From assembly GCA_030610855.1 (NCBI GenBank), contig JAUWQY010000006.1:153-64152 (forward strand): 64,000 bases of DNA, written 5' to 3'. The notes under the pieces were generated by a model. That model was not told the origin of the DNA and ran no database searches. It saw nothing but the letters and a program-made list of their open reading frames with translations. Origin of the DNA: Dehalococcoidia bacterium. Lineage in GTDB: Bacteria; Chloroflexota; Dehalococcoidia; GIF9; AB-539-J10. Within the stretch, counting starts at the first letter, position 1, and every line of letters starts with the position of its first letter. Shown here piece after piece: positions 1 through 50,370 of this stretch. Position numbers and translations under genes: made by a program.

Positions 1-11
1 TCGCGGGCAAG

Positions 12-374
12 GTGAGACCAAGGTTTGCGTGGTCGGAGGTACAGGATGTCAGCGGAGTTTACTATAGCCTGCAGATATCAGCCAGTGCCAATGTCACGGA
101 CACCGGGGAATTCGTCGACCCCATCGTGAAGCTAGAGCGCCGGGTCGGGTCGAACTATACCCTTGAGAAAGCAGAAGCTCTATCGCACGGCACCTACTAC
201 TGGATTGTGCAGGCCGTGGATGGGGCGGAGAACGCGGGCAACTGGACCGCGGCCCAATCCTTCCGGGCCGGGCGCTTGCCTATGTGGGCATTCATTGTTA
301 TCATAGTCTTCGCCGTATTGGGCGCCGCCGCTGCTATTTACCTCTTCCTGGTAAGGAGAAGGATGTACCTCTAG
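12..374 (+). CDS. C-terminal fragment of a surface or membrane-anchored protein; the gene probably begins upstream of the window. It ends in a hydrophobic helix followed by RRR.
   Basis: The ORF is open from the window edge. The C-terminus is WAFIVIIVFAVLGAAAAIYLFLVRRRMYL, a transmembrane anchor plus a basic tail. It contains N-x-T/S sequons and an Ig/FN3-like YYWIVQAVD segment. Confidence 0.4.
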   Translation: MRPRFAWSEVQDVSGVYYSLQISASANVTDTGEFVDPIVKLERRVGSNYTLEKAEALSHGTYYWIVQAVDGAENAGNWTAAQSFRAGRLPMWAFIVIIVFAVLGAAAAIYLFLVRRRMYL

Positions 375-396: not shown

Positions 397-437
397 GAGA
401 TTCATCGCTCCGACAAGTCGGAGCTCAGCATGACAAG
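397..437 (-). repeat. Nested-hairpin dispersed repeat, subtype A: agattc-[ctccgacaagtcggag]-ctcagcatgacaag.
   Basis: It shares the flanks gagattc / ctcag(a/c)atgaca and an inner palindrome ccgacNNgtcgg with the copies at 2072, 3892 and 4278. Confidence 0.6.
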
Positions 438-608
438 AAGCGAAGGGCGCGCAATGACGCGTAGGGCGAAAAGCGGAAATGGAGATAAGATAGAGGCTGT
501 TTGGAAAATGTAGCTGCCCAATTTACCGGGCGATTATGCTCCGATGAACTTGGAGCAACTACAGAGAATCAAGACTAAACGGTCTTAGAAAAGAGCAGGA
601 GGCGAAGA

Positions 609-1787
609 ATGAAGCTAACAGTTATTGGACTGGGACAATGTGGAAGCCGGATTGCCGACCATTTTGCCAGGCTGAATCTCAAGGCGCGTACCCAGCGCAA
701 GGCAACCATAGCCCCCACCGTCATTGCCGTGAATACGGACCAGGCGGATTTGACCGGGCTGAGGTTTATCAAGAACGACTTCCAGCACCGGGTGCTCCTG
801 GGCTTGCGCCAGACGCTGGGACACGGGGTAGGCAAGATAAACGAGCTGGGGGCTCAATTGGCCAAGGAGGACGGTGACAAGGTGCTGGAGGCCGTGAAAG
901 CCAGTCCACAGTTTTACGAGACCCACGCCTTTCTTATCGTAGCCGGCACTGCCGGCGGCACGGGCTCGGGAGCCCTGCCCATAATATGCCGCGCCGTTAA
1001 GGAGCGATACATCAGCAAGCCGGTCTATGCCCTGGCCGTTCTGCCCTTTGAGCATGAGCAGACTACAGAGTCCAGAAGCGTATATAACACCGCTACCTGC
1101 CTGAAATCCACTTACGACATGGTGGATGCCATCTTTCTCGCGGATAACCAGAGGTACGTGAAAAAAGATGCCAGCCTCATCAGTAACATCGACACAATAA
1201 ACAGGATGATTGTCGAGCCCTTCTACGACTTGATGTGCGCCGGCGAAGTAACCAAAGCCAAACACGTGGGCGCGCGGACGATAGACGCCGGCGACATAAT
1301 CGCCAGCCTGGAAGGATGGACCACTATCGGCCTGGGCAGACATGAGCTTCCTTCGTTCCGCTTCCCCTGGGAGATAAGGAAGAGGACTTTCCGCGAAAAA
1401 GCCCTGGAGAGCTTCCGCGGGACACAGGCCCTGGACGCCACCATCTCCGACCTTTCCCTCACTTGCAGCCCCAAAGACGCCGCCAAAGCCATCTATATCA
1501 TATCTGGCCCGGGAAAAGAGCTTAACATGGACATGGTCAAGAGCGTTGCCGATTACGTTAAGGAGTTGGCAGCCAACGCCTTGATTCGAGGCGGCGATTT
1601 CCCCGGGGAAAAGCACTTTATCGACGTTACCCTGATACTATCACAGCTGTCCTTTGTGCCCAGGATAAAGGACTTCTACGAGCAAGCTACCAAGTATGCC
1701 CAGGAGCATCAGGGGCAGATAGAGGAAACTAAGAAAAGGATTGAATCCCTGGCTGAGCTGGGCAAGGACCTGCCTACGTTGGAATGA
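609..1787 (+). CDS. Tubulin/FtsZ-superfamily GTPase with tubulin/CetZ-like motifs, not FtsZ-like motifs.
   Basis: The start has a strong SD, aggaggcgaagaATG. The T1 loop is GLGQCGSRI (tubulin has GQCGNQ; FtsZ has GGGGNNA). The T4 loop is AGTAGGTGSG (tubulin GGGTGSG). IFLADNQRY resembles tubulin FMVDNEA. SNIDTINRMIVEP resembles tubulin LNVDLTEFQTNLVP (T7). The blocks AVNTDQADLTGL...HRVLLG...GHGVG..ELGAQLAKED resemble the archaeal CetZ clade as I recall it. Length is 392 aa. Confidence 0.8.
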   Translation: MKLTVIGLGQCGSRIADHFARLNLKARTQRKATIAPTVIAVNTDQADLTGLRFIKNDFQHRVLLGLRQTLGHGVGKINELGAQLAKEDGDKVLEAVKASPQFYETHAFLIVAGTAGGTGSGALPIICRAVKERYISKPVYALAVLPFEHEQTTESRSVYNTATCLKSTYDMVDAIFLADNQRYVKKDASLISNIDTINRMIVEPFYDLMCAGEVTKAKHVGARTIDAGDIIASLEGWTTIGLGRHELPSFRFPWEIRKRTFREKALESFRGTQALDATISDLSLTCSPKDAAKAIYIISGPGKELNMDMVKSVADYVKELAANALIRGGDFPGEKHFIDVTLILSQLSFVPRIKDFYEQATKYAQEHQGQIEETKKRIESLAELGKDLPTLE

Positions 1788-1789: not shown

Positions 1790-2355
1790 TGCGGGGTCGG
1801 AGACAAGCCCCGACCCTACAGATGAGTGCGGTGCCCCGATTCGTTGCGGTGCAGGGAGCGGGACAACAGTGTAGCCCGAGGCGTTCATAACCCCCCTTAT
1901 AATCCCCCTTTATCTTAAGGGGGGATTAAGGAGAAAACTCCCATATTCCAAGTCCCCCTGTTCAGATAAAAGCGGCAGGGACATTGGGATCCCTCTCTTT
2001 AGGCAAGAGGGGCCAGGGGAGTTATGATTCCCCCCTCTTAGCGTAAGAGGGGGCTAGGGGGAGTTACGAATGAGATTCTTCGCCCCGACGGTCGGGACTC
2101 AGAATGACAGGGGTGGTAGTGCGAGGCTCTAGCCTCGTGAAGGGGAGAGGGCACGACCCTGAAGGGTCGCACTACAGTATTGGGTGCACCGGCGCAGCCC
2201 GAGTCATTTTGTAGTTGCTCCGATTTCATCGGAGCACGGTTGGGCGGCTATTCCCCCTGTCGTTGCGAGCCCCGACTTGTCGGGACGCAGCAATCTCGGT
2301 CGGGTAGGAGATTGCCGCGCTCTGCATTCGCTCCGCTCGCAATGACGGGCGGCAC
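1790..2355. repeat. Hairpin-dense non-coding region. It contains several GC-stem/AT-loop palindromes and at least four copies of the dispersed nested-hairpin repeats.
   Basis: Palindromes: gggtcggagacaagccccgaccc (1797-1821); taatccccc..ggggggatta (~1905-1935); ccctctctttaggcaagaggg (~1988-2008); cccctcttagcgtaagagggg (~2030-2052). Subtype A repeat at 2072-2110. cgaccctgaagggtcg at ~2166-2181. tgtagttgctccgatttcatcggagc at 2203-2236. Subtype B at 2260-2297 and a degenerate inverted B copy at 2310-2346. Confidence 0.6.
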
Positions 2356-2359: not shown

Positions 2360-3757
2360 CTAGCTCTCTCTGAGCCGGCCTTTTGCCTCCCTGGGACCAA
2401 GACCTTTGGCAGCCTGGACCACCAGAGCCAGACTCACGAGGAAATCGTCATGTCCCTCTTGAGGGTCAACATAGAAGTTAATCGTCTGGTTGGGGCGATA
2501 TTGCGCCCTCGCTTTTTCCAACTCGAACATGGTTTCCCTATACTCGCCGGAGCCGTCCTGCCTGTAGAGTTTAAGCCTACCGGAGTTTATGAAGGACAAC
2601 AGCTCAAAGCCCATGTCCGATTTGCTCTTCGAGGTAATGACAAATGGGATAACCCGGCTTCCCAGTTCCTGCCTGAGAAAGCTGGCGACAGGCTGGCCGA
2701 TGCCCGTAGCGTCGACTACTATCCTGTGGCAGTTCCAGACATCGCGCAGAATGCCCGTCATCTGGCCATAGAGCTGACTATGGGGCGTTCCCGTCCAGCG
2801 GTATTGTTCCACGACCTTCAGCACCGGCTGTGAAGGACTGGCAGCGGCGACCTCAGCGATGGTGATTACCGTCGAGTCGTGCCCCCACCCCCGGCGGGTG
2901 CCAGTAGCCTCCTCTGCCGTCAGCTCCGGCTCGTGTTCGCCTGCCAAATCCACGCCGGCAACGTATGTCCTCTTTCCCCCGGCGGCCTGTCCTGAGCCTG
3001 CCGAAGGATGCGACTGCCTCTGGTGTTCTCCAAGCACGAGGGCTATTTGCTGGCGTGACAGGAAACCTCCACCGCGTGTGATAGGCAATAAGGCATATTG
3101 CGTCCGGAACAGGGGATGCTCTTCACCCAATCTTTGCCGCTCAGCCTCCACAAACCTCACATAATCAGGATTGTAGCGCCCTACCTCCTGCCAGTCATAT
3201 CTGAAGTGGCGCTTTATGCCATCCTTCCCTTCCAGTTCCAGATTGGCCTGCTTCACCTCTTCCAGCAAGCTGCTACTGTCCCACGTAGTGCCGTAAAGAA
3301 TCGTGGTCACGTTGGTGGCGGAACCCATGGGGCGGAATTCCCTGCTGTACTTCTCTTTGCTGACATCTTGCGCTTCATCGATCTCAAGGATTATGTCGGC
3401 GGTATGTCCCACCACCGAAGAGGAGCCATCGGCCGAGAGAAAGATGGCTCTGGCGTTGCCGAGCTGTAGAATATAGCCCATCTGGAGACGATAGATGCCG
3501 TCAAAACCAAAATCAACGAGCCTCTCTTTCAGCCTTTCTATAGATATAACGGTCTGAGGCCTGAAGGTCGGGGAGCATTTTACGAGACTGCCTCCCCCGG
3601 CCATATAGAGCGTTAACAGCAGGACTTCCAGATGCGCCGAAAGCTCATTCTTGCCTCCCTGGCGGGCAATCTCCGCGGAAAAGGTCAGTCCCATTCCCTT
3701 CTGGATGGAGTCCATAGCCGCACGGGCGACTTGCAGCTGGTAAGGTCGTAGTTTCAT
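2360..3757 (-). CDS. Phage terminase large subunit (N-terminal ATPase plus C-terminal RNaseH-like nuclease). It is solitary: no other phage structural genes lie in the window.
   Basis: Walker-A-like ARQGGKNELSA; Walker B ILEIDEAQDV; C-terminal nuclease block with AGVDLAGEHE and VVDATGIGQP. Length 465 aa. Flanked on both sides by hairpin repeats. Confidence 0.75.
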   Translation of the reverse strand: MKLRPYQLQVARAAMDSIQKGMGLTFSAEIARQGGKNELSAHLEVLLLTLYMAGGGSLVKCSPTFRPQTVISIERLKERLVDFGFDGIYRLQMGYILQLGNARAIFLSADGSSSVVGHTADIILEIDEAQDVSKEKYSREFRPMGSATNVTTILYGTTWDSSSLLEEVKQANLELEGKDGIKRHFRYDWQEVGRYNPDYVRFVEAERQRLGEEHPLFRTQYALLPITRGGGFLSRQQIALVLGEHQRQSHPSAGSGQAAGGKRTYVAGVDLAGEHEPELTAEEATGTRRGWGHDSTVITIAEVAAASPSQPVLKVVEQYRWTGTPHSQLYGQMTGILRDVWNCHRIVVDATGIGQPVASFLRQELGSRVIPFVITSKSKSDMGFELLSFINSGRLKLYRQDGSGEYRETMFELEKARAQYRPNQTINFYVDPQEGHDDFLVSLALVVQAAKGLGPREAKGRLRES

Positions 3758-3762: not shown

Positions 3763-3848
3763 GTTATCGGCGATCAGCCTCAAAATCGTAAAGGAAGGGC
3801 TTCCTTCACGCCTCGAACGGTGGGTTATTGGCCATCAGGTCCAATACT

Positions 3849-3880
3849 TGCAGTTGGTCAGGTCGTAGTTTCATAGCTCT
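3849..3880 (-). repeat. Copy 2 of the 32-bp direct repeat: a duplicated terminase 5' end with a stronger SD. It opens a 22-codon ORF, MKLRPDQLQVLDLMANNPPFEA*.
   Basis: The minus strand reads aggaggagtacgagagctATGaaactacgacctgaccaactgcaag. It is in frame with the terminase ATG 117 nt downstream, but separated from it by TGA and TAA stops. Confidence 0.65.
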
Positions 3881-3891
3881 CGTACTCCTCC

Positions 3892-3932
3892 TTGTCATTC
3901 TGAGCTCCGACAAGTCGGAGCGAAGAATCTCA
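3892..3932 (+). repeat. Nested-hairpin dispersed repeat, subtype A, forward orientation (tgtcattctgag-ctccgacaagtcggag-cgaagaatctc).
   Basis: An outer stem attct/agaat surrounds the inner hairpin ccgacaagtcgg. It is the inverted partner of the copy at 4278-4326. Confidence 0.7.
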
Positions 3933-3969: not shown

Positions 3970-4260
3970 CTACTCCTCATACCATCTCTCACCTAAGTCT
4001 TTCCATTCTGGATTTGCCGCCTCGATTAAGGCAATCTTCTTCTTTCGCAGCCATCCCTTGATTTGCTTTTCCCTCTGGATCGCAGCACGTACATCACTAG
4101 TAATCTCATAATAGACCAGCCTGGCGATATTGTATTTTCGAGTAAATCCCTCAATTAGCTTATTTCTGTGTTCATATACACGCCGGACTAGATCATCGGT
4201 TACACCTGTGTAAAGCGTTCTAGAGTTATTGGTCATGATATAAACGTAGTACTGCTTCAT
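3970..4260 (-). CDS. GIY-YIG nuclease superfamily small protein (COG2827/YhbQ-like).
   Basis: YVYIMTNNSRTLYTGVTDDLVRRVYEH..IEGFTRKYNIARLVYYE is the classic GIY-YIG core (GIY...YIG, Arg, Glu). Length 96 aa. Bracketed by inverted copies of the subtype-A repeat. Confidence 0.85.
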   Translation of the reverse strand: MKQYYVYIMTNNSRTLYTGVTDDLVRRVYEHRNKLIEGFTRKYNIARLVYYEITSDVRAAIQREKQIKGWLRKKKIALIEAANPEWKDLGERWYEE

Positions 4261-6806: not shown

Positions 6807-8240
6807 TCACTTCTCTCCCTGCCACCACTTCTTCAACCTGGCGGCAATCTCTTTCTCATAGCCCTGGTCACTGGGAAGGTAATAGCGTTTTCCCTGGAGC
6901 GAGGGTGGCAGGTTCTGTTGCCTGACGAAATGGTCGGGATAGTCGTGGGCGTATTTGTAGCCCTTCCCATATCCCGTCCGGCGCATCAGGTCGGTTACCG
7001 GGTTGCGTAAATGGAGCGGCACCGGCTCATTTCTGCCCTGCTGTATATCCCGTCGCACCCGGGAATAAGCCAGGTATAACGAGTTGCTTTTGGCGGCGGT
7101 GGCCAGATAGACCACCGCCTGCGCCAGAGCCAGGTTGCCTTCCGGTACGCCCACGAAGTGCACTGCTTGCTGAGCGGCTACTGCTATTACCAGCGCTTGA
7201 GGGTCAGCAACGCCAACATCTTCGGAAGCAAAGCGTACGAGGCGGCGAGCGATGTAGAGAGGGTCTTCACCGGCTTCAAGCATGCGTCCCAGCCAGTACA
7301 AAGCGGCGTCCGGATCCGAGCCCCGTAGCGACTTATGCAGTGCCGAAATCACATCATAATGCTGGTCACCGCTCTTGTCATAAAGCAAGGCACGGTGCTG
7401 CAATGCCTGCTCAATGGCCGACAGGTCAATCGACTGCAAACCTTCACCATCAGGCAAGGCAGCAAAAGCCGCCATCTCCAAAGCGTTCAATGCCACGCGA
7501 GCATCCCCGCTGGACGCGGTCACCAGATGGCTCAGAGCCTCCTCGCTTATGCCAATCCGGAGCTTCCCCAGTCCTCTTTCTCCATTCTTGATGGCTCGCT
7601 CCACGATGAGCCGGATATCTTCGTCCCTCAGTAGATTCAGCGGGAAAACCCGGGAGCGAGAAAGAAGCGGAGCGATGACTTCGAACGAAGGGTTTTCCGT
7701 GGTTGCCCCGATGAAAGTCACCGTTCCGCTTTCCACAAAAGGCAATATTGCATCCTGCTGTGCCTTGTTGAAGCGGTGGATCTCATCAATGAATAGAATC
7801 GTCCTCTGTCCTGATAACTTCAGCCTCCTCTTCGCTTCCTCAATAACCCGCCGCAAATCAGCTACCCCGGCACTCACGGCACTCAAAGAGCTGAAATGCC
7901 CCCTGGTGATGTTGGCGATAATGTGAGCCAGAGTCGTCTTGCCGCTGCCCGGCGGTCCCCAGAAGATCATAGATGGTAGCCGATCTGCCTCTATACATTT
8001 GCGGAATACCTGCCCCGCGGCAACTAAATGCTCTTGCCCCACGAACTCGTCGAAGGTCTGCGGCCGCATCCTTGCCGCCAGGGGCATGCTGTCAGGCAAG
8101 GCCTTTTCTTCCGGCTGGTCAAAAAGAGGCATCCTCTCCATTAGACTGCACCGCAGAGTTTCATTGCAGGAGACAGTTTCACCAATCCCTGTATCATCGC
8201 AAGGCATCCCGAGCACAACCGAGGGAACTCGCCGAAGCAA
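6807..8240 (-). CDS. rarA: Replication-associated recombination protein A (AAA+ ATPase RarA/MgsA).
   Basis: Walker A GPPGSGKTTLAHIIA; Walker B ILFIDEIHRFNKAQQDA; the C-terminal MgsA helical domain is present. The true start may be an internal Met (MERMPLFDQ). Confidence 0.9.
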   Translation of the reverse strand: MLRRVPSVVLGMPCDDTGIGETVSCNETLRCSLMERMPLFDQPEEKALPDSMPLAARMRPQTFDEFVGQEHLVAAGQVFRKCIEADRLPSMIFWGPPGSGKTTLAHIIANITRGHFSSLSAVSAGVADLRRVIEEAKRRLKLSGQRTILFIDEIHRFNKAQQDAILPFVESGTVTFIGATTENPSFEVIAPLLSRSRVFPLNLLRDEDIRLIVERAIKNGERGLGKLRIGISEEALSHLVTASSGDARVALNALEMAAFAALPDGEGLQSIDLSAIEQALQHRALLYDKSGDQHYDVISALHKSLRGSDPDAALYWLGRMLEAGEDPLYIARRLVRFASEDVGVADPQALVIAVAAQQAVHFVGVPEGNLALAQAVVYLATAAKSNSLYLAYSRVRRDIQQGRNEPVPLHLRNPVTDLMRRTGYGKGYKYAHDYPDHFVRQQNLPPSLQGKRYYLPSDQGYEKEIAARLKKWWQGEK

Positions 8241-8274
8241 TGGCGATTCGAGTTTCTAAGTAGTCTCGACCCCT

Positions 8275-8799
8275 TCACTTGAATCTTCTTACCTGAAAGC
8301 GATAGAGACTGACCGGCTCGCCGGTTGATATTCTGGCCTTGAGCCGGCAGATGACAATTTGCTCTTCGACGCTATCGACCCCCTCCAGGTCGGGCAGCAG
8401 GAGTCCCTTTTTCAAACCGTTTTCCACGATGACGCCATATTTCCTGTGATCAAGCTGGCTGATATCCGTGACCGGGGCAGGCTCAGTAAGAATATCGACG
8501 CCGTATTCCAGGTCCTCAAGCTCAGACACAGCTACCGGGGGGAAGCGGGGGTCTCTGGTAGATGAGCTGATTGCATTGGCGATTATCTCGTCGGCCACAT
8601 TCTCCCTCATCGGCTCGAAGGTACCGATGCATCCTCTCAACTCGCCGTGCTTATGCAGGGAAACAAAAACTCCCGCCCGCTCTCTCATCTCCGGAGTCAA
8701 CTCGCGCTGCTCGATGATTTCGCCCTTCCGCACATAGCTTTCCACAGCCTCTTTGGCCAGTTTCACAACAGGATGAAGTCCCTCTTCTGTCATACGCAC
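8275..8799 (-). CDS. AMMECR1 domain protein (AmmeMemoRadiSam system component).
   Basis: Has the RGCIGTFEP motif. It is 174 aa and adjacent to the AMMECR1-associated radical SAM enzyme. Confidence 0.85.
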
Positions 8800-8930
8800 C
8801 TCGCATCCCTCACCCTTTTCCTTTCCCTGGACGGGAGAGCATCGAGGCGAGGGTTGACACTTACACTACAGTCTATCTTGCCACTTCCAAGACTCTTGCT
8901 GCATCTCAGAACCCCCCTGTTCGCGTCCAA

Positions 8931-9038
8931 CCTGTAGTTGCTCCGATGCAATCGGGGCTGCCCAATGGATTGGGCAAATACGATCCTGACCTTTCTCCAT
9001 CGTTCCCGTATAATCTGTAGTTGCCTGATTTATCAGGC
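8931..9038. repeat. Two tgtagttgc-[hairpin] repeats (third subtype) between AMMECR1 and the radical SAM gene.
   Basis: ctgtagttgc-tccgatgcaatcgg-ggctgcccaatggattgggc at 8931-8977, and ctgtagttgc-ctgatttatcagg at 9015-9038. The same head, tgtagttgctccgat, appears at 2203-2236. Confidence 0.6.
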
Positions 9039-10055
9039 GATTCGTGGCATCCGGAAGTTAAGCCCCGCCCCGCAGAACTTGCACTGCGAGCCGTCCAGCC
9101 CCACAACACGGGTATCATAGCCAATGCGACGGACGACCGTCTTCCCACAAGAATAGCACACAGTGTCCTCATACTCGTGCCCCGGCACGTTGCCCAGATA
9201 GACAAATCTCAGCCCTGCCTCTTTCCCGATTCCATACGCCCTTTCCAACGTGGACACCGGCGTAGCCGACAGATGAGTGAACTCATGCAGAGGATGGAAG
9301 CGAGTTACATGCCAGGGAGTTAACTCGCCCAGTGCATCTCGAATCCAGCCGGCAATACCTCGAAGTTGCTCCTCATCGTCATTCATCCCGGGAACGATGT
9401 TGGTAACCACCTCGACATGCATATCCCATTTCTCTCTTGCCCGCCTGGCTACCTCCAGAATACCCCGCCACTGGGAGATTCCGGCCAACTTGCGATAGAA
9501 TCCGTCACTGAAGCCCTTGACATCAACCCTCCATGCGTCAAGCCAGGGTCCTATCGTATCGAGAGCTTCAGGCGTGGCATAGCCATTGGTCACATAGACG
9601 GTGTATAGATTGCTTTCCTTGGCCAGCCTGGCTGAATCCAGGGTGTATTCAAACGAGATAGCGGGCTCGTTATAGGTCCAGGCAATGCCCTGGCAATCGT
9701 ATCTCCTGGCTAGCTCTATCTCTCTCTCCGGGAGCAATTGCTGAGAATGGGGCGGCATATCAGCACAGGAGATCTCCCAGTTCTGGCATCCTTTACAGCG
9801 GAAATTACATCCCCAACTGCCCAAAGAGAAGGCATAAGTGCCGGGAAAGAAATGAAACAGAGGTTTCTTCTCAATGTGGTCTGCCGCCATCGAGGATACC
9901 TCGGCATAGTTCATGGCATACAGAGTGCCATCCCGATTGATGCGCATACGGCAGACGCCAAGCTTACCGGGATTAACAAGGCACCTCCACTGGCAAACAT
10001 GGCACCTCACCCTGCCCCCGGGGAGTGTCTCATAGAGCAGAGCCTCCCTTTCCAT
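9033..10055 (-). CDS. AmmeMemoRadiSam system radical SAM enzyme.
   Basis: The N-terminal Cys cluster is CHVCQWRC...C, the SAM cluster is CNFRCKGCQNW, and the C-terminal cluster is CYSCG...CKFCG. This architecture is typical of the AMMECR1-associated radical SAM family (TIGR04337-like). Confidence 0.85.
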   Translation of the reverse strand: MEREALLYETLPGGRVRCHVCQWRCLVNPGKLGVCRMRINRDGTLYAMNYAEVSSMAADHIEKKPLFHFFPGTYAFSLGSWGCNFRCKGCQNWEISCADMPPHSQQLLPEREIELARRYDCQGIAWTYNEPAISFEYTLDSARLAKESNLYTVYVTNGYATPEALDTIGPWLDAWRVDVKGFSDGFYRKLAGISQWRGILEVARRAREKWDMHVEVVTNIVPGMNDDEEQLRGIAGWIRDALGELTPWHVTRFHPLHEFTHLSATPVSTLERAYGIGKEAGLRFVYLGNVPGHEYEDTVCYSCGKTVVRRIGYDTRVVGLDGSQCKFCGAGLNFRMPRIA

Positions 10056-11126: not shown

Positions 11127-11288
11127 AAACGACCCATTCTGGCTCTCGCAACCTTGTCTGGGTTCCGTGAGGCGGGCTGTTTAGTATCTTCCCCTAGGCC
11201 TATCACGCCCAATAATCACGATAACGTTCGTAGGGCAGCATTTTATGTGCCTCCATCTCCGGCGGGGAATAAATCCCCGCCCCCCAAG

Positions 11289-12887
11289 CTAGGGCTGTTC
11301 CACGTAAACCTGGCTCAGGTTGGGAATACCCAGTAGACCAAGCTCATAGCCTGTAACATAGGGTCTGACCAGGATGTAGTTTGCGCCGTGCCACAGAGGC
11401 AGGCAAGGAGCCTCATCAACCACCATTTGCTCAGCCTGCCGGTACATAGTCAGGCGGGCGGTATTATCCTGTTCTATGGCCGCCTGGTAAAGCAAAGCAT
11501 CCAAGTCGGGGTTGCTGTATTCAAAGGCATTGTTCTCGCTTCCGGTAAGAAAGAGGATATCCAGGAAATTGTGCGGGTCCGGGTAATCGGCTATCCAGCC
11601 CAGCACAAACATCTCATCCTTCTCTTGCTTCAGGTTGTAGACAAAATTCTCTGGTTCCAGTTGCCTGACCGAGACTTCCACGCCGAGGTTTTGCTGCCAT
11701 TCCTCGATAATCGCGCCCAGGTAGTCGGGAATGTAATTGCCATAGCCGGCAACAGTCAAGGTGATAGGAGGCAAGTTCGAGGCTTCACCATACCGTGAGG
11801 CGGCGATGAGTTCTTTCGCCTTTTCCACATCGTAGTCCAGTCCCTCGAGACCCTCGTCATAGCCAGGCATACCCGGTGGCAAAATCCCCCTGGCCTCATT
11901 CGCCATGTCACTCAATACCAGTTTGGCGATGCGCTCTCTATCAACAGCATGAGAAAAGGCCCGCCGAACATTAACGTCGTCGAAAGGAGGTTCGGCAGTA
12001 TTAAAGCCAACATAATAAAGGCTGAGCTCAGACGTTACGGCTAACTCCGCGTAGAACGGGCTGGTCTCGTCACGCACCCGGTGAATATAACCCCCGTATA
12101 CCGGAACGACGTCGATGTACCCCAGTTCATACATGGGCATAGGCGGACCGGCAAGATAATAGACGACGTGCTCCACTTCGGCCGGATCGCCGTAGTAGGT
12201 TTCGTTACGCTCCAGAATCAACCACTCGCCGGCCTGCCATTCCTTTAGCTTAAACGGCCCCGTTCCGTCTGGTTCGCACCACCAGTCTGTCCGGACCTCC
12301 GCATTGGCTCTGTCAACAACAAAAGCAGTAGGATAAGCCAGCTTGCTCAGGAAATAAGCCCTGGGAGCATCAATGGTGACACGAAGAGTGTAATCATCGA
12401 TTACTTCGACCCCGGAGATCTCTCCCGTTTTTCCCGCCAGCATATCGCTGGCGCCAATGATATCTCCCAGATAGGTAGCCGCCGTGCCAGAGCCAGTATC
12501 CGGGTGGCAGGCTCGCTCCCAGGAGTATTTGAAGTCGGCGGCTTTCACTTCTCTGCCGCTATGAAATTTCACTCCCTGGCGCAGGTAGAAGGTATACGTT
12601 CTGCCGTCAGGGCTTTTCTCCCAGCTCTCAGCGATATCGGGTACTGTCCTCAGCTCATGGTCCAGACGAACCAGGCCGGAGAAGATATGCACGACATAGG
12701 TATAGGAAGAGAAGTCGGCAGCAATCGCCGGGTCGAGCGTTATGGGGCCCGCGTCCCAGAGACGAAGGACGCTGTCTCCGCTGCCCAAAGGAGGACAGCC
12801 CGCCAACGAAAGCAGAAAGAAGGCGAGAACAAGTGAGAGCAATACTATGTGCCGATTTCTTCTTCTACAGAAACAACTTGACTTCAT
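11289..12887 (-). CDS. ABC transporter substrate-binding lipoprotein, family 5 (peptide/nickel/oligopeptide).
   Basis: Lipobox LLSLAGC; length 532 aa; SBP_bac_5-like sequence throughout. Confidence 0.85.
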   Translation of the reverse strand: MKSSCFCRRRNRHIVLLSLVLAFFLLSLAGCPPLGSGDSVLRLWDAGPITLDPAIAADFSSYTYVVHIFSGLVRLDHELRTVPDIAESWEKSPDGRTYTFYLRQGVKFHSGREVKAADFKYSWERACHPDTGSGTAATYLGDIIGASDMLAGKTGEISGVEVIDDYTLRVTIDAPRAYFLSKLAYPTAFVVDRANAEVRTDWWCEPDGTGPFKLKEWQAGEWLILERNETYYGDPAEVEHVVYYLAGPPMPMYELGYIDVVPVYGGYIHRVRDETSPFYAELAVTSELSLYYVGFNTAEPPFDDVNVRRAFSHAVDRERIAKLVLSDMANEARGILPPGMPGYDEGLEGLDYDVEKAKELIAASRYGEASNLPPITLTVAGYGNYIPDYLGAIIEEWQQNLGVEVSVRQLEPENFVYNLKQEKDEMFVLGWIADYPDPHNFLDILFLTGSENNAFEYSNPDLDALLYQAAIEQDNTARLTMYRQAEQMVVDEAPCLPLWHGANYILVRPYVTGYELGLLGIPNLSQVYVEQP

Positions 12888-22037: not shown

Positions 22038-24014
22038 ATGATACCTCTAGTCGTCAATACACTCGACCCTATGGCCAAAGTCAGGATTCTGACTACCAAA
22101 GATCACTCCACAAAGGCCCTCAAGACTCTGCACACAGCCGGCGTGCTGCATGTTAAACAAAGTGAAGAGCTAAAGCCTGTGGGCAGAGAAGCTCTTGAAC
22201 ATGAAAGAAAGCAAATCAACGGGCTACTAACAGACATTGCCAATGTGCTGGCTTACATACCGAAGGGAGAGATTGTGTCCCTGGAGGAGGGTGTTGAGGT
22301 CATATACACCAGGCCCCTGGACGAGATTGACAGCGAAGTAAGATCATTATGCACCAAGCTCAGTAATATGCATCGAAGAGCTGCCAAACTCGAAGAGGAC
22401 GTTAAGGAGCTAAGAGAACTAAGTAAGTATCTTGGCTCTCTGGGACAGCAGGCTGACATCAGACTGTCTGATCTGGATTTTTCGGGAGGCTATCTTTTCT
22501 CCCGGGTCTTCCTTCTTCCAAATGAGGCATATCACAATCTGTGCCATACCGTGAAGGACTACCTGCTTGAGAGCATTGCTGTTGCGCTAGAAAATGAAAC
22601 CGCATTCTACGTAATTGCCAGGGTTGAAGACAAGGAGACTATAGAATCTGCGATTAGGAGCAGCGGTGGCAGAATTCTTCAGATACCGAAAGAAGATCTA
22701 ACTGTGCGACAATTCGTTGAGGTAGTCGTCGATAAGGTCCATGGCTTTGAAGAGGAAATGGCAAAGCTCTACGGCGAGATTGAAGGCAAGACCAGGGAGA
22801 ACTTAGGACAGCTCGTCCTTTTCAGGGAGGCACTATCAGCTGAAGCTGAAAGACTGGCAGTCTTAGAAAAGGCCTCTGAGGCAGACTATGTCACACTAAT
22901 CGAGGGCTGGATTCCTGAGAGCAATGTTGAAGGCACAATTGCCGAGCTGAAGGAGAACATAGGCCTTGTGTACATTGACACGAGGAAGCCGGAACAGGCA
23001 GAAGAACCGCCCACCAGGATGAAGAATGCGGCTGCAGTCAAACCGTTCGAGGTCATCGTCAACATGTTCGGTACACCGAAGTACAGAGAATGGGATCCCA
23101 CGCCGATAATAGCCTATTCATTTGCCATTTTCTTCGGTCTTATGCTTTGTGATGTTGCATATGCTATCGGCATTATACTGGCTGCCAGATTTCTAATACG
23201 CAGATTTGTCGATGACCCATATTCTGAAGGCTACAGGCTGTTCCAGAGAGTGCTCTATATCAGCGGGGCCGTTGCCCTTGTACTCGGCTTCCTGGCCGGG
23301 AATTACCTCGGAGATATATACTCGTTCTTTGGAGTTGACAGCGCGGCGCTCTTGGAGCCTGTTAGAGACATGCTTACCGATCCGATTTCTTTCATAGTCC
23401 TTTCCGTTGGGCTGGGCCTTGTTCATGTGAACACGGCTCATCTTCTGGCGCTGATCGTCGGGGTCAGGAAAAAGGACAAAGGCATAGTGATCAACAAGGT
23501 TGCACTCTTTGCACTCCAGCTCTGCGGTATCCCCATAATTCTAAGGTGGTTGTTTGAGATATCTTTGCCGGTGGCTCCAGGCATGTACGACATCTTCATG
23601 TATGTCGTAGCTGCCAGTGTGGTAGCCATTATAGTGTCCTCTTTCATGCAGCAGGGCGGTCTGGGGGCTGTCTTCTGGATCTTTGACCTGACTGGTCTGC
23701 TCGGCGATGTGATGTCATATGCCAGGCTGGCCGGAGTCGGATTAGCCACATTCTACCTTGCGTCGAGCTTCAACATGCTGGCACGGTTGTTCTCCGGAAT
23801 GATACCGGGCGTGGTCGGAGTCATCATTGGGACTATCATAGCAGTTGTAGTCCTGATCGTCGGGCATCTTATCAACCTGGCTCTGAGCGGTATCGGTTGC
23901 TTCGTGCACTCCCTGAGACTGTGTTTCGTCGAGTTCCTATCCAAGTTTTACGAAGGCGGTGGTGAGGAGTATAGTCCATTCCGGTTGAAGACGCGACCCG
24001 TATTCGTCAAATGA
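22038..24014 (+). CDS. atpI: V/A-type ATP synthase subunit I (the a subunit: stator plus proton channel).
   Basis: 658 aa. A hydrophilic N-terminal half is followed by a C-terminal multi-TM domain. Confidence 0.85.
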   Translation: MIPLVVNTLDPMAKVRILTTKDHSTKALKTLHTAGVLHVKQSEELKPVGREALEHERKQINGLLTDIANVLAYIPKGEIVSLEEGVEVIYTRPLDEIDSEVRSLCTKLSNMHRRAAKLEEDVKELRELSKYLGSLGQQADIRLSDLDFSGGYLFSRVFLLPNEAYHNLCHTVKDYLLESIAVALENETAFYVIARVEDKETIESAIRSSGGRILQIPKEDLTVRQFVEVVVDKVHGFEEEMAKLYGEIEGKTRENLGQLVLFREALSAEAERLAVLEKASEADYVTLIEGWIPESNVEGTIAELKENIGLVYIDTRKPEQAEEPPTRMKNAAAVKPFEVIVNMFGTPKYREWDPTPIIAYSFAIFFGLMLCDVAYAIGIILAARFLIRRFVDDPYSEGYRLFQRVLYISGAVALVLGFLAGNYLGDIYSFFGVDSAALLEPVRDMLTDPISFIVLSVGLGLVHVNTAHLLALIVGVRKKDKGIVINKVALFALQLCGIPIILRWLFEISLPVAPGMYDIFMYVVAASVVAIIVSSFMQQGGLGAVFWIFDLTGLLGDVMSYARLAGVGLATFYLASSFNMLARLFSGMIPGVVGVIIGTIIAVVVLIVGHLINLALSGIGCFVHSLRLCFVEFLSKFYEGGGEEYSPFRLKTRPVFVK

Positions 24015-24041
24015 AAGACTTAAAACAGGAGGTATAAAGAG

Positions 24042-24509
24042 ATGATAGATCCAAGCGCGTTAGCTAGTATCGGCGGTGCAGTGGCGTTGATTGCCGGTCT
24101 AATCGGTTCATCTATAGGTATTGCCACCGCTGCATCAGGCGGATTGGCTACATTGTCCGAGGATCCGCGGCAGTTCAGGAATGTGTTAATACTGGCATCA
24201 TTGCCAATGACACAGTCCTTTTATGGGCTAATAGTGCTCATACTAGTAATAACAGGCGTACTTCCCAATATGCCTGCCGAGGGCAGCGCCGGTCTTGTTG
24301 CTCTTGTTGTCAGCCTCATAGCGGCTTTTGCCTTTGGTTTCTCGGCAGTATATCAAGGTATGGTTTGTGCCTCAGGTATCGCAATGTTACCCAAGACCGG
24401 AGGGAAAATCCTGACCAGCTCTATGATGCTGGCAGTATTTGTCGAGCTGATAGCTGTTCTTGCCCTGGTCTTCACGATAATGGCGTTCACCCTGCTTGGC
24501 CTTATGTAG
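24042..24509 (+). CDS. atpK: V/A-type ATP synthase subunit K (proteolipid, double hairpin).
   Basis: 155 aa with four TM helices, rich in G/A/I/L. Confidence 0.85.
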   Translation: MIDPSALASIGGAVALIAGLIGSSIGIATAASGGLATLSEDPRQFRNVLILASLPMTQSFYGLIVLILVITGVLPNMPAEGSAGLVALVVSLIAAFAFGFSAVYQGMVCASGIAMLPKTGGKILTSSMMLAVFVELIAVLALVFTIMAFTLLGLM

Positions 24510-24518
24510 AGGTGTTTT

Positions 24519-25106
24519 ATGGGAATGGATAAGATCAGGGACGCCATCATCTCCAAGGTCCGGATGGAGGCCGAAGACATAACACGTGAGGCTAAGGAGA
24601 AGGCACAGGAGGAGATAGAGAAGGCCAGGAGACAACGGGAAGCTAGGTTCGACGAAGAGAGAGGCAGAATACTGACAGACGTGGAAGCGGAGGCTGCCAG
24701 AACTCTAGCTCAAGCCTCTATCAAGGCGCGTCAGAAGCTATCGAGTACGAAAGCTGACATAATCGCTGAGATAGTTGACAGGGCCCGCAGGGAATTGTCC
24801 CGAGTTTCAAGCGATGACAGCCATATTCTAAACTTGGTCAGAGAAGCCATGGAGGCACTCGCTGCCGCCAAAGGCAAAATCTACGTTTCACCTAAAGACG
24901 TAGGCACTGTAAAGAAACTCCTTGAAGCACACAGGGACTTGTCTGACAGGATAGTGGAGGTCAGGGAATCGAATTGCCTCGGTGGAGTCATAGCTGAGGA
25001 CATCGAGGGAAAGCTCAGGATAGATAATACTTACGAAACAAGGCTCGAGATGCTCCTGCCAAGGCTATTGCCGGAGATAAGCAAGAAACTCTTTGAATCT
25101 CCGTAA
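24519..25106 (+). CDS. atpE: V/A-type ATP synthase subunit E.
   Basis: 195 aa with an N-terminal charged helix (EAEDITREAKEKAQEEIEKARRQREARFDEE). Its position in the operon is consistent with subunit E. Confidence 0.75.
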   Translation: MGMDKIRDAIISKVRMEAEDITREAKEKAQEEIEKARRQREARFDEERGRILTDVEAEAARTLAQASIKARQKLSSTKADIIAEIVDRARRELSRVSSDDSHILNLVREAMEALAAAKGKIYVSPKDVGTVKKLLEAHRDLSDRIVEVRESNCLGGVIAEDIEGKLRIDNTYETRLEMLLPRLLPEISKKLFESP

Positions 25107-25115
25107 AGGAATACC

Positions 25116-26150
25116 GTGCCTAGTGTAAAGTACGCATTCATATCGGCTTACCTGAAGGGTCAAGAGGCCAGGCTGCTGACTTCCGAGCATATAGATAGCT
25201 TGCAAGCAGCGCCCAGCATACAGGACGCGCTGGCAACCATAAGGGAGACCGATGTAGGGAGCTATCTGGAGGAATTGCCCGTCAGAACTTTTGATGATCT
25301 AGACGAATGTTTGTGGAGATATCTTGCCCAGCGCTTTGCGTACATAGAGTGGTTCAAGCTCGTGCCCCGGGATGTGCTGGGGATATTGAGGGCATATATT
25401 GCTAAGTATGATGTCTTCAATATCAAAGCGACCTTAGAGAGCATTTCTGCTGCCAAGAAAGCCAAGACGATACCGCTGGGGATAATCCACAATAATGGAT
25501 TGCTGGATGAGCTCTCCAGCGCCCAGAATATAGATGACATCACCCGGGTACTTGTCAAGTGCAAACTGGGAGACTATGTACCTGCCCTGGAACGACACAA
25601 AACAGATGAAGCCGCGAAGTCGAAGCTCCTCGTTCAGGCCAGGTTAGATGGTGAGTATTACGGAAATCTCCTGAATATGGCAAGGTCTGTAAAAGACGGC
25701 CCTATCCTTCTTCAGGCCTTCGGTCTAATCATAGATCTGGCAAACCTTCAAATCGCCTGGAGAGCCGTGATTGCAGGCATAGAACTCCACGTTGCCGAGT
25801 TAACCATTGCTGGCGGATATGAGATTACGGACAGATCTATCAAGGAGTTACTATCTCTTAAGATGGCCGAGATGCCTGCCAGGCTGGAGAATACCCAGTA
25901 CTCTGATGTGGTTAAAGAAATGCTGGTTAGCCATGACAAAACCAAAAGCATCACGGTTGTAGACGAAATCATCGATAAGCACAAGTTCAGGATGCTCAAG
26001 GAAATGCTGGCGCCAAGAGTGCTATCCCCGCTGGCGATGGTCTGGTACCTAATCCTCAAAGAGATTGAAATACGAAACCTGCGGCTCGTTCTGAAAGCAA
26101 TTGTCGATGGTGTTCCGGCGCAGGAAGTGAAGGGCTATTTGGTGCTGTGA
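25116..26150 (+). CDS. atpC: V/A-type ATP synthase subunit C (the d subunit).
   Basis: 344-aa helical protein at the canonical position between E and F. Confidence 0.75.
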   Translation: MPSVKYAFISAYLKGQEARLLTSEHIDSLQAAPSIQDALATIRETDVGSYLEELPVRTFDDLDECLWRYLAQRFAYIEWFKLVPRDVLGILRAYIAKYDVFNIKATLESISAAKKAKTIPLGIIHNNGLLDELSSAQNIDDITRVLVKCKLGDYVPALERHKTDEAAKSKLLVQARLDGEYYGNLLNMARSVKDGPILLQAFGLIIDLANLQIAWRAVIAGIELHVAELTIAGGYEITDRSIKELLSLKMAEMPARLENTQYSDVVKEMLVSHDKTKSITVVDEIIDKHKFRMLKEMLAPRVLSPLAMVWYLILKEIEIRNLRLVLKAIVDGVPAQEVKGYLVL

Positions 26151-26151
26151 C

Positions 26152-26505
26152 ATGATGCCCATCAAACACCTGGATATAGTTGTTGTAGGAGACGAAGAGC
26201 TAGTCAACGCGCTCAGATTGGCCGGCAGCAGCAGATATTACATGATAAAGGGCGATCACGATGTCCGTGAAAACGTAAGGAAGGCTCTAGCCGAGTTGAT
26301 AGCCGAGCCTGATGTTGGCATAGTAGTGATGCTGGAAGACTATGCACAGTATGTTGAAGACCTGTTAACCCGGGTCAGAAAAGGAAGAGCGATCACTCCT
26401 GTGATCATTGAAGTTCCATCCAAGTTCGGTACGAAGTACCCGGATGTCAGGGAATATTACAGAGCGTCTGTTAGAGCATCTATAGGGTTTGAAGTGGAGA
26501 TTTGA
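26152..26505 (+). CDS. atpF: V/A-type ATP synthase subunit F.
   Basis: 117 aa, with IVVVGDEELVNALRLAGS, typical of the F subunit. Confidence 0.75.
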   Translation: MMPIKHLDIVVVGDEELVNALRLAGSSRYYMIKGDHDVRENVRKALAELIAEPDVGIVVMLEDYAQYVEDLLTRVRKGRAITPVIIEVPSKFGTKYPDVREYYRASVRASIGFEVEI

Positions 26506-26534
26506 GACTATAGAAAGAGCAGGAGGTTGAAGAT

Positions 26535-28286
26535 ATGGGCAAAATATGGAGAGTTTCAGGTCCTCTAGTTATAGCCGAGGGAATGAAAGGTTCCCAGGTT
26601 TATGAAGTTGTTGAGATAGGTGAAGAAGGGCTTGTCGGGGAGATAGTAGGACTGGAAGGGGACAGAGCGGTAATTCAAGCACACGAGGATACTTTGGGAT
26701 TGAAAGTCGGTGCGGTGGTGATAGGAACGGGAAGAATCTTAAGTGCTGAGCTAGGCCCCGGACTGGTGGGCTCTATTTATGATGGGTTGCAGAAATCTTT
26801 GCTTGCCCTGAGTGAGAATACCGGCCCATTCATAAAACGAGGGGTCAAAGCTTCGCCTCTTCCTCGAGACAAGAAATGGCAATTCACACCTCAAGTCAAG
26901 GTGGGGGATGCTGTTAGCCAGGGGGATATAATAGGCATAGTTCCCGAGACCAATCTGATAGAACACAGGATAATGGTGCCAGCAGGAATCAAAGGCACAG
27001 TAAAGGAGATACGCAAAGGCGACTACACCGTCGAAGAGCCTATAGCCTGGGTGGAACATGACGGGGAAGCAAAAGAACTCACGATGATGCAGCGATGGCC
27101 CGTAAGAAAGCCCAGGCCCTATAAGCAGAGATTCGATCCTTCAGGCTTACTCACTACTGGCATGCGGATTCTGGATTACATGTTCCCTTTGGCTCTCGGG
27201 GGCAAAGCGGCGATACCCGGGGGCTTTGGTACTGGAAAAACCGTTGCCCTGCAGCAACTGGCCAGATGGGCCCGGACACATCTGAACATCTATGTTGGCT
27301 GTGGTGAAAGGGGTAACGAGATGTCCGACGTGCTCTGTAGCTTCAGAGAACTCAAGGATCCCAACACAGGAAGACTACTGCAGGAGAAAGAGATCTTCAT
27401 AGCTAATACCTCCAACATGCCTGTGGTGGCCAGGGAGGCAAGCATTTTCGTCGGCATTACCATGGCCGAGTATTTCCGGGATATGGGTTACGATGTTTTG
27501 CTGGTTGCCGATTCAACTTCGAGATGGGCTGAAGCCATGAGGGAGATGAGTGGCAGGCTTGAGGAAATGCCCGGAGAGGAGGGCTTTCCCTCATATATGG
27601 GCTCTCGGCTTTCTTCTTTCTACGAAAGAGCGGGGATGGTTGAATGCCTGGGTAATCCTGGAAGAAGGGGATCAGTAACAGTGGCCGGTGCTGTGAGTCC
27701 CCCCGGAGCCGATTTCAGCGAACCCGTAACCCAGAACACACTGAGAATAATAGACGCACTGTATGCCTTAGAAGTCTCGCTGGCAAACAAGAGACATTTC
27801 CCGGCCATAAGCTGGCTCACCAGCTATAGCCTTTATGTAGACGCGGTCAGAGACTGGTGGAATGAGTATGATGCAGGGTGGGAGAATACCAGGGCCAGTG
27901 CCTTGAGACTATTGCAGCAGGAGGCTGAACTTGAGGAGATCGTCAGACTCGTGGGTCCCGAAGCTCTGCCTGAAGGAGACAAACTGCTGCTTCTTGTCTC
28001 CAGGATGATACGCGAGGACTTTCTCCAGCAGAGCGCTTATCATGAAGTTGATACCTACTGCGTGCCGACAAAAGCCGGCCTCATGCTCAAAACTATCATG
28101 AAGTTCTATGAGCTAGCCCAGGAGATGCTAAGTGCAGGGTCAGGTATTGAGAGCATCCGCTCATCACCGATGGTGTACAGAATATCCAGGATGAAGGATA
28201 TACCCAACGAGGTCGCCGAACAGAGAATCAAGGAATTGTGGGCGGAGATGGAACAAGGCCTGGTAACCGGCAAACGGGTTCCCTGA
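26535..28286 (+). CDS. atpA: V/A-type ATP synthase catalytic subunit A.
   Basis: P-loop GGFGTGKTV, the non-homologous insert region, and [12 protein letters not shown] motifs. Length 583 aa. Confidence 0.95.
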
Positions 28287-28302
28287 GCAAAGGAGGACTC
28301 CA

Positions 28303-29700: not shown

Positions 29701-29717
29701 AATCGAGCGCAGGGCAA

Positions 29718-30353
29718 ATGCCGGAATTAATCAAGGTTAGACCCACCAAGATCGAGCTGGTAAGACTAAAACGCAGGCTCTCCTTAGCGCGAAGAGTGCA
29801 GAAGATAGTCAAGGACAGGCTTTCCATACTAACGACCGAATTCCTGCAAACAGCGAGAGAGACAGTGGATGTCAAGAGAAGACTCCTTGATAACTTGACT
29901 GAACTCTACAGGGCGCTATCAATCGCCTCCGGATACCATGGGTACATCGCCCTGGAGAAGGAGCTAATAGCCACTGAGGCTGATTTGAAAGTTATTCCTG
30001 GCTCAAGGAACATCGCCGGTGTGCGAGTTCCGTCTTTTGAACTGGTGGACAGTCCCGACAAGGTCGGGATGAGGGGCTACAGCCTGGCTGATACATCCTC
30101 GTGGCTGGACCGCGCGGCGCAACTATCTGGAGAATGCCTCGGAGTTACTGTGGAATTAGCTGAGCTTCAGAGGACTTTCGAATTGCTGGCAGCGGAAATC
30201 AACAGGACAAAAAGGATAACTAACGCCTTAGAATATATAGTAATTCCAGGGTTACAGGTCACGATAAATTACTTGAATATGAAGTTCGAGGAAAGAGATA
30301 GAGAGGAGAAAGCACGTCTGAAACGTGTGAAAGTGCTGGTTGCTCGAGGATAG
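29718..30353 (+). CDS. atpD: V/A-type ATP synthase subunit D.
   Basis: 211 aa coiled-coil central stalk protein (KLRLKRRLSLARRVQKIVKDRL...). Confidence 0.9.
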   Translation: MPELIKVRPTKIELVRLKRRLSLARRVQKIVKDRLSILTTEFLQTARETVDVKRRLLDNLTELYRALSIASGYHGYIALEKELIATEADLKVIPGSRNIAGVRVPSFELVDSPDKVGMRGYSLADTSSWLDRAAQLSGECLGVTVELAELQRTFELLAAEINRTKRITNALEYIVIPGLQVTINYLNMKFEERDREEKARLKRVKVLVARG

Positions 30354-50261: not shown

Positions 50262-50370
50262 TGTTGCCCTTCACATCAATTTTAACATCGGAGCACCTGA
50301 AGGTAAAGCGGATATATTCTTGACTAGTTGCACTGTCTTTGCACTTGTGGCATAATAAGCCAGACCTTTA

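Follow-up and report, generated by a model that had tools for sequence, protein, structure and literature searches.

BtubA/B of Prosthecobacter is a non-FtsZ protein of the tubulin superfamily found in bacteria; it is thought to have been acquired horizontally and is confined to one genus. For the CetZ branch of the superfamily, the only solved proteins are, to our knowledge, those of the PDB entries 4b46 (CetZ1 of Haloferax volcanii, HVO_2204), 4b45 (CetZ2) and 3zid (the CetZ of Methanosaeta, MtCetZ). CetZ1 controls rod development, and its published T7 GTPase mutant, CetZ1.E218A, distorts the envelope (PMC13556191). A specialist survey terms the family archaea-specific, which is a statement on distribution and not a molecular criterion (PMC9856176). 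Here, we analysed a gene at 609..1787 (+ strand) of a 64,000-nucleotide stretch of contig JAUWQY010000006.1 from a Dehalococcoidia bacterium; this whole stretch is the window to which unlabelled positions refer. Judged from its sequence and its predicted fold, the gene product is a CetZ-family GTPase of the tubulin/FtsZ superfamily. The host is not archaeal, as described for CetZ; the window and its relatives are bacterial.

The open reading frame (ORF), read from the sequence, starts with ATG and encodes 392 amino acids (aa), so that the gene proposed in a preliminary description of the window is real. The strong Shine-Dalgarno sequence given there is AGGAGG at 596..601 (+), 7 nt before the ATG. 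Judged against the Pfam gathering scores, two domains were found in the product: the tubulin/FtsZ GTPase domain at aa 3–183 (PF00091 Tubulin, E = 8e-31, 108.2 bits, cutoff 33) and CetZ_C at aa 189–361 (PF21011, E = 5e-20, 72.1 bits, cutoff 21.6), the latter followed by C-terminal helices and a tail. The Pfam search with the window protein gave no match to FtsZ_C at E<=10 and none to Tubulin_C (PF03953), and Tubulin_2 (PF13809) reached 18 bits, below its cutoff of 27. The FtsZ equivalog TIGR00065 of NCBIfam scored 61.7 bits against a cutoff of 295.2 and matched aa 2–203 only. In this comparison of Tubulin, FtsZ and CetZ models, it was therefore Tubulin and CetZ_C that passed.

We then compared the protein with all PDB sequences using phmmer. 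The top three matches were CetZ1 (4b46, 3e-49, end to end), CetZ2 (4b45, 2e-28) and MtCetZ (3zid, 4e-17), followed by much weaker ones to the best FtsZ (2e-9), BtubB (3e-5) and BtubA/B and tubulins in general (~1e-5). An AlphaFold2 model, built on an alignment of 37 sequences (A2), had a predicted local distance difference test score (pLDDT) of 78.9 and a predicted template-modelling score of 0.84. It showed the two-domain tubulin/FtsZ core, C-terminal helices at 351–366 and 368–386, and a disordered end of five residues (pLDDT <50 at residues 388–392). When the model was searched against the PDB with Foldseek, 4b46 ranked first (E = 4e-30, template-modelling (TM) score 0.90, root-mean-square deviation 2.6 Å); 4b46, 4b45 and 3zid made up the top three (E 4e-30 to 7e-24), FtsZs came next at 5e-20 or weaker, and no tubulin was present among the top 50 fold matches. 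Because the Pfam, PDB sequence and Foldseek results agree, the resemblance to CetZ noted in the preliminary description was correct, and its proposal of a CetZ-like cytoskeletal GTPase is borne out: CetZ_C lies above cutoff, and the three CetZ structures are the best matches in both sequence and fold. Its alternative of a deep-branching bacterial tubulin fails on the missing Tubulin_C match and on the absence of tubulins from the top 50 folds.

These data also bear on the idea that the protein is a bacterial tubulin of the BtubA/B kind, or a DNA-segregation filament of the TubZ/PhuZ type, which we consider very improbable. Like BtubA/BtubB and eukaryotic tubulin, the protein has a GQCG-type T1 loop and a DN[EQ] motif (here DNQ), it has the weak Tubulin_2 match, and many of its Dehalococcoidales relatives occur as two tandem paralogs that recall btubA/btubB. 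However, the catalytic T7 acids are present in each of the tandem paralogs, unlike in the asymmetric alpha/beta-tubulin pair, and the profile, PDB and fold comparisons place tubulins far behind CetZ. The genomic context is chromosomal and of housekeeping type, with no TubR or centromere-like partner and with no phage or bacterial plasmid homologs, and the clade to which the protein belongs spans a class-level radiation rather than one genus.

The GTP-binding loops were located by alignment with CetZ1, CetZ2, MtCetZ, FtsZ and tubulin. The T1 loop, G7-L-G-Q-C-G12 (627..644, +), is of the CetZ/tubulin type GxGQxG and not the FtsZ type GGGGxN; the T4 signature A115-G-G-T-G-S-G121 is at 951..971 (+), and the T7 loop/H8 junction T224-I-D226-A-G-D229-I-I at 1278..1301 (+). 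The T7 segment TIDAGDII aligns with NVDFADV of FtsZ, VVD215SSE218II of CetZ1 and NADLRKL of beta-tubulin. This puts D229 at the position of CetZ1 E218, published as the catalytic T7 residue (PMC13556191), and of E. coli FtsZ D212, that of the catalytic acid given to the GTP of the next subunit. The T1 GQCG, T4 GGTGSG and DNQ motifs (the last at D179-N-Q) had been recognised correctly before, and the conserved blocks listed with them (AVNT..ADL.GL..HRVL.G..GHGVG..ELGA..A.ED) can be aligned position by position with CetZ1 of H. volcanii. The T7 region had been misplaced: the segment then read as 'N-I-D...VEP', N193-IDTINRMIVEP-204, lies in helix H7 (191–210 in the model) and aligns with H7 of FtsZ and tubulin.

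We observed that G7, G9, Q10, G12, G71, G73, G75, A115–G121, D179, N180, D226 and D229 are invariant among the 37 members of A2. The same motifs hold in the 360 full-length members of the clade described below, with GxGQxG in 358, GGTGSG in all 360 and DN[QDE] in 357, and the T7 segment, as T[IVL]D[AG]GDII or as the SAR202 variant VLDANDVI, is near-universal. On sequence grounds, the conserved loops and T7 acids predict the full equipment of a polymerisation-activated GTPase.

Compared over its full length with CetZ1, the window protein is 33% identical, of like length and two-domain architecture, and shares the T1 and T4 signatures, DN[DQ] at H7, an acidic T7 residue (D229 here, E218 in CetZ1), the long S7-H9 loop (M-loop region), the helical extension at the C-terminus and, at its very end, a short hydrophobic peptide. 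It differs from CetZ1 in its bacterial host and in belonging to a well-supported clade of its own. With FtsZ it has in common the superfamily fold (TM ~0.8), the logic of GTP-dependent polymerisation with a T7 acid, and a C-terminal peptide of the D-I-P-x-F-L type; apart from the T1 loop and the profile results, it departs from FtsZ in the absence of dcw or ftsA context and in its separation from FtsZ in the trees.

The extreme C-terminal peptide, K386-D-L-P-T-L-E392 (1764..1784, +), is conserved and resembles the adaptor-binding peptide of FtsZ; MAFFT pairs it with DIPAFL at the C-terminus of E. coli FtsZ. P389 and L391 are invariant in A2, and [ILVM]-P-x-[LFIM] is found within the last 9 residues of 347 of the 360 clade members. 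The tail of the window group is KDLPTLE; Dehalococcoidales have KDIPSLL or KDIPTLL, and SAR202 has LLPNL. Against the form D-[IL]-P-[ST]-L-[LE] here, many haloarchaeal CetZ proteins have [IV]-[ED]-P-L-F, and archaeal tails are in many representatives of the IEPLF or DIDSLL type; the tail of the Bathyarchaeial protein P0179, KDIPPLL, is nearly the same as here, and the archaeal proteins fall in the sister set described below. The C-terminal tail of FtsZ docks filaments onto membrane adaptors (FtsA, ZipA, SepF). By analogy, the KDLPTLE tail probably docks filaments on a membrane-associated adaptor, for which FtsA would be the obvious candidate.

Next, we examined the distribution of the family. 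Three word-seeded homolog searches each gave thousands of matches, and the best 120 of each were inspected: those of the first were relatives of the window protein (85–100% identical), those of the second SAR202/Chloroflexota proteins on contigs of up to 4.4 Mb, and those of the third Dehalococcoidales proteins including Dehalococcoides mccartyi, whose ortholog is named 'Tubulin-like protein CetZ' in UniRef and 'cell division protein FtsZ' at NCBI. An exhaustive HMMER scan of 1.84 billion representatives at 50% identity returned 1508 matches at E<=1e-3, 70 of them at E<=1e-30. No phage homologs were found, and the homologs in the plasmid collection were only haloarchaeal megaplasmid CetZ paralogs. 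With thousands of homologous clusters, the earlier remark that such proteins are rare in bacteria is misleading for Dehalococcoidia. The novelty was also overestimated, as members are already labelled 'tubulin-like protein CetZ' by JGI and UniRef, and Dehalococcoidia CetZ-like sequences are mentioned in the literature (PMC9871819). What is new here is the size and monophyly of the clade, the synteny within orders, the tandem paralogs, the C-terminal peptide and a proposed overlap with a peptidoglycan-less radiation.

Neighbour-joining trees were built from 104 sequences: that of the window protein, those of named loci and of full-length representatives, the CetZ proteins of the three PDB entries, FtsZ of E. 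coli and of M. jannaschii, and beta-tubulin, with outgroup sequences that had been verified. All non-FtsZ sequences split from FtsZ at 100% bootstrap, so that the window protein does not fall inside canonical bacterial FtsZ. A clade of 43 tips, found in 96 of 100 bootstraps, unites the window protein with the two Dehalococcoidales paralogs, the SAR202 group and other metagenomic representatives, and the same 43 tips were recovered in 60 of 60 with a BLOSUM-score distance and stricter trimming. Identities inside the clade go down to ~30%, and every named member is from Chloroflexota (Dehalococcoidia, SAR202, Dehalococcoides mccartyi). Its sister is a set in which CetZ1 and CetZ2 stand together with representatives that bear the names Nitrososphaerales, Thaumarchaeota, Bathyarchaeia and Halogeometricum. 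MtCetZ and beta-tubulin have poorly resolved positions, beta-tubulin branching outside the 43-tip clade. The CetZ-like proteins of Nitrososphaerales and Bathyarchaeia ('tubulin/FtsZ family protein') are, after CetZ1, the closest named relatives by score outside Chloroflexota (P0150, 33% identity, E = 7e-49); our literature search found no study of them.

As far as named sequences show, the clade is confined to Dehalococcoidia (Chloroflexota). Most likely it arose from a single ancient inter-domain transfer of an archaeal cetZ, followed by vertical descent and local duplication, the direction and the timing of the transfer being the parts that we infer. The argument for vertical descent is the synteny conserved within the window-type group and within Dehalococcoidales. 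In the window-type group (73–100% identity) the order is Ig/TIG-transmembrane genes, cetZ, in some loci a terminase-like gene, and then PHO4, PhoU, MgsA, AMMECR1 and radical SAM; in Dehalococcoidales it is enolase (eno), GAPDH (gap), cetZ (often two paralogs), and then dnaX, ybaB and recR. In both groups recO lies on the same side of cetZ, at different distances. A supposed 'MgsA' link between the two groups proved to be an artefact, that gene being DnaX in Dehalococcoidales. These neighbours are surface-protein and terminase-like genes, or eno/gap and dnaX, and not ftsA, and they differ from the F420, purine or pili genes that PMC9856176 gives for archaeal cetZ.

The host is bacterial, the window being part of a Dehalococcoidia (Chloroflexota) metagenome-assembled genome (MAG). 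The window encodes a bacterial DnaG (423 bits, cutoff 284) and RpoD, consistent with the bacterial chromosome described earlier and not with an archaeal genome or contig. A protein with the very sequence of the query lies on an NCBI contig of 64 kb. The 35 related loci in the species-representative genome collection come from MAGs of Dehalococcoidia, Dehalococcoidales or Chloroflexota, a closed chromosome included, with two exceptions. One is a contig of 3.3 kb (L025, PXDX01000076.1) from a bin labelled 'candidate division WWE3'; its cetZ is 93% identical to the window gene and has the same upstream Ig-transmembrane gene. The contig is most likely a misbinned Dehalococcoidia contig. The other is labelled Chloroflexia, yet shows Dehalococcoidales synteny.

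The conserved synteny effectively refutes the idea that the gene was acquired horizontally in recent times, or that an error of assembly or binning placed an archaeal fragment on a bacterial contig, and we give either of these next to no weight. Three features could be read that way: palindromic repeats with long-range inverted pairs stand on both sides of cetZ, terminase-like and GIY-YIG nuclease genes adjoin it, and its nearest characterised relatives are archaeal. However, the same neighbourhood recurs at 73–100% identity in dozens of independent MAGs from many studies, on contigs that are closed or of Mb scale, and an ortholog is present in the genome of a D. mccartyi isolate. The clade is, moreover, old and monophyletic, and no plasmid or phage homologs were found beyond the haloarchaeal megaplasmids. 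Of the earlier description of the gene as horizontally acquired, the archaeal affinity stands; the acquisition was not recent, and the gene is a syntenic, vertically inherited core gene of a class-level radiation.

From an ancient transfer and a conserved GTPase we turn to what the protein may do. In the mechanism that we propose, the window CetZ would bind GTP through its T1–T6 loops and polymerise head to tail, D229 of one subunit completing the GTPase site of the next, which would give dynamic protofilaments. The disordered KDLPTLE peptide would attach these to an adaptor much as the C-terminal peptide of FtsZ does. By analogy with Haloferax CetZ1, filaments under the membrane may shape or organise the envelope of peptidoglycan-less, S-layer-type bacteria, with CetZ acting alongside the retained canonical FtsA/FtsZ and not replacing them.

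The background to this proposal comes from several reports. Dehalococcoidales and SAR202 have no peptidoglycan and no dcw genes, yet have kept ftsA and ftsZ, in the arrangement mraZ-mraW-ftsA-ftsZ (PMC10608941). Peptidoglycan synthesis was lost once, in the ancestor of Dehalococcoidales and the marine radiation (PMC10284905), and disc or flattened-coccus shapes are described in the peptidoglycan-less lineages (PMC10608941, PMC10284905). A study of D. mccartyi BTF08 reports that an 'FtsZ/Tubulin GTPase', btf_0551, is expressed, is distinct from FtsZ (btf_0595), and becomes less abundant when the cells go from discs to barrels; a hypothetical protein encoded near this tubulin gene, btf_0548, has the same pure-culture-only abundance (PMC8163811). 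A role in shape or envelope is thus suggested by CetZ1 biology, by the disc and flattened-coccus shapes of cells without peptidoglycan, and by the drop of btf_0551 in the change from disc to barrel.

The main functional rival is a role in division alongside FtsZ, in which CetZ would not be a shape cytoskeleton but would join canonical FtsZ as another, FtsZ2-like division protein that cells without a peptidoglycan septum need for cytokinesis. We regard this as unlikely. In the D. mccartyi proteome, the level of the tubulin/FtsZ GTPase changes together with those of FtsZ and of further division proteins (PMC8163811), and dual FtsZs matter in archaea without a pseudomurein wall, according to Brown and Duggin (PMC9856176). 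The C-terminal D-[IL]-P-x-L-L also resembles the FtsZ peptide that binds FtsA/SepF. Many annotations read 'cell division protein FtsZ', but these names are automatic. Against a division role, the protein fails TIGR00065, lacks FtsZ_C, is not encoded beside ftsA or a dcw remnant, and splits from FtsZ at 100% bootstrap, falling on the CetZ side and not with FtsZ1/FtsZ2-type proteins. The roles of CetZ1 in H. volcanii are in cell shape and motility; deletion of cetZ2 causes no division defect (PMC13556191).

We consider it highly probable that the explanation as a whole is right, namely that this is a CetZ-family GTPase of a Dehalococcoidia clade, derived from an ancient archaeal transfer and working through the filament mechanism above. 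Its base is what was observed of family, catalytic and tail motifs, clade structure, synteny and host, to which polymerisation, tethering and a role in shape would be added. Several points count on the other side. The literature search found no paper devoted to the bacterial CetZ proteins, and none with polymerisation, localisation or phenotype experiments on them. It is from its annotation that btf_0551 is presumed to be a CetZ homolog. No functional partner common to the orders was seen in the gene neighbourhoods compared, and as regards a canonical ftsZ in the same genome, the six frames of the window hold no second ORF with an FtsZ/tubulin signature. The overlap between the known distribution of the clade and the peptidoglycan-less radiation is a working hypothesis. 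The trees are distance-based only, by neighbour joining with two distance measures. Support was 21% for monophyly of the archaeal sister set and 46% for the node at which this set meets the bacterial clade; the deeper nodes, at 46% or below, are thus weak evidence for any one donor lineage or direction of transfer. About half of the 50%-identity representatives of the clade carry no taxonomic name; on the favourable side, two unnamed subclades have bacterial-type neighbours (FtsH, a MacB-type ABC transporter with a membrane-fusion protein, GntR). Finally, the Dehalococcoidia CetZ-like sequences form 'sparse paraphyletic groups' according to PMC9871819, whereas they were monophyletic in our trees.

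A wider scenario can be put forward tentatively, as possible but on balance doubtful. Here, cetZ would have entered from archaea at or near the node that lost peptidoglycan and flagella, and would have become the main determinant of the disc and flattened-coccus shapes under an S-layer-type envelope, the tail allowing CetZ to use FtsA/SepF as a tether. If this were true, one of the large bacterial radiations, to which the abundant SAR202 of the ocean belongs, would have switched to an archaeal-style design of envelope plus cytoskeleton.

The surroundings of cetZ in the window were also inspected. Upstream, the 3' end of a surface-protein gene (3..374, +) encodes an Ig-like domain and a C-terminal transmembrane anchor, in line with the anchored surface protein first described, and its position is kept in 21 related loci. 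In the window-type group, 1–3 paralogous proteins of ~520 aa are encoded 5' of cetZ, each with a signal peptide, TIG/Big Ig-like domains, a transmembrane anchor and a basic tail (e.g. locus L007:5808-7364 and 8121-9713); from these features they are candidate envelope or S-layer components. A fn3/Ig protein of ~1150 aa often precedes them. The cetZ gene itself follows a gap of 234 nt and its downstream neighbour is convergent, and a promoter/terminator scan around it gave nothing above shuffle expectation. Judged from the gap and the convergent gene, cetZ may be monocistronic, the term used earlier.

The convergent gene (2360-3757, −) is terminase-large-subunit-like (Terminase_6C, 30 bits; phrog_5909, E = 6e-7). 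No further phage genes lie near it, and 16 related Dehalococcoidia loci have it at this position too; it looks like a conserved or domesticated gene and not a transient prophage remnant. Between it and a conserved gene for a 160-aa hypothetical protein lies a stand-alone GIY-YIG nuclease-domain gene (3970-4260, −; 96 aa; PF01541, E = 7e-16).

Palindromic repeats are present in the intergenic region upstream of cetZ (400..563), pairing as inverted repeats with copies 3' of the gene, and the hairpin-repeat cluster noticed earlier on the other side consists of hairpins and palindromic repeats at 1790..2350. Long-range inverted pairs, 537-563/2210-2236 (27 nt, 93%) and 410-435/2258-2283, bracket cetZ, and CCGACNNGTCGG occurs in 3 copies against 0.02 expected. 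Short palindromic elements (CCGACAAGTCGG, TGCTCCGAT..ATCGGAGCA and GCTCGCAATGAC) lie at 400-563, 1790-2350 and 3830-3920; they cluster between genes, in the surroundings of cetZ and of the terminase-like and GIY-YIG genes. A mobile cassette delimited by the flanking inverted repeats was ruled out, since dozens of genomes keep the gene in synteny and the repeats are themselves short intergenic palindromes.

In most Dehalococcoidales loci (L026-L034; e.g. L028:10001-11176 and 11210-12385) there are two cetZ paralogs, in tandem or two genes apart. Both are ~50–55% identical to the window protein, and the catalytic T7 acids and KDIPSLL tail are retained in each. At this locus, a single copy is present in D. 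mccartyi and in Dehalogenimonas sp. TCA1. Beside the paralogs are genes for an Ala/Glu/Lys-rich repetitive protein of 570–740 aa, probably all-helical and with an acidic tail (L028:13012-14724, −; L032:7433-9652, −), and, as a second conserved neighbour, for a helical protein of ~170 aa (L028:12414-12944, −; L032:6751-7245, −). Neither contains a Pfam family or a transmembrane segment, and both are candidates for filament-associated proteins. In D. mccartyi (L037:11384-12480), the genes after cetZ are a DUF2089 gene, a small one of hypothetical product and one that is SHOCT-like. For one divergent clade member, P0136, ~3.2 kb without a called gene (L039:4358-7567) separate an efflux operon of ABC and membrane-fusion proteins from cetZ, on its 5' side; the matching interval of the sister contig L040 holds a LAGLIDADG-like ORF.

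Elsewhere, the window holds a second archaeal-flavoured system, an A/V-type (archaeal-type) ATP synthase operon (22038-30353, +), with subunits I at 22038-24014, C at 25116-26150, A at 26535-28286 (NF003220, 831 bits, cutoff 470) and B at 28303-29700. A PyrR binding site (Rfam RF00515; 54.1 bits, gathering score 54) at 50361-50473 (+) lies 5' of pyrimidine genes that include carB (55007-58276).

These results place CetZ, which the specialist literature regards as a third branch of the tubulin superfamily specific to archaea, among the conserved core genes of Dehalococcoidales, SAR202 and related orders. The hosts include the bioremediation organism D. mccartyi and lineages abundant in aquifers, sediments and the ocean. 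As many of the clade's proteins are mislabelled 'cell division protein FtsZ', the finding matters for annotation, and it provides a clean example of what would be an ancient transfer of a cytoskeletal gene from archaea to bacteria. The lineages are reported to be without peptidoglycan yet to have defined shapes, and a tubulin-like cytoskeleton is an obvious candidate for the cause. Although ordinary as an annotation, the gene draws attention to a cytoskeleton, so far unstudied, of wall-less bacteria that matter ecologically.

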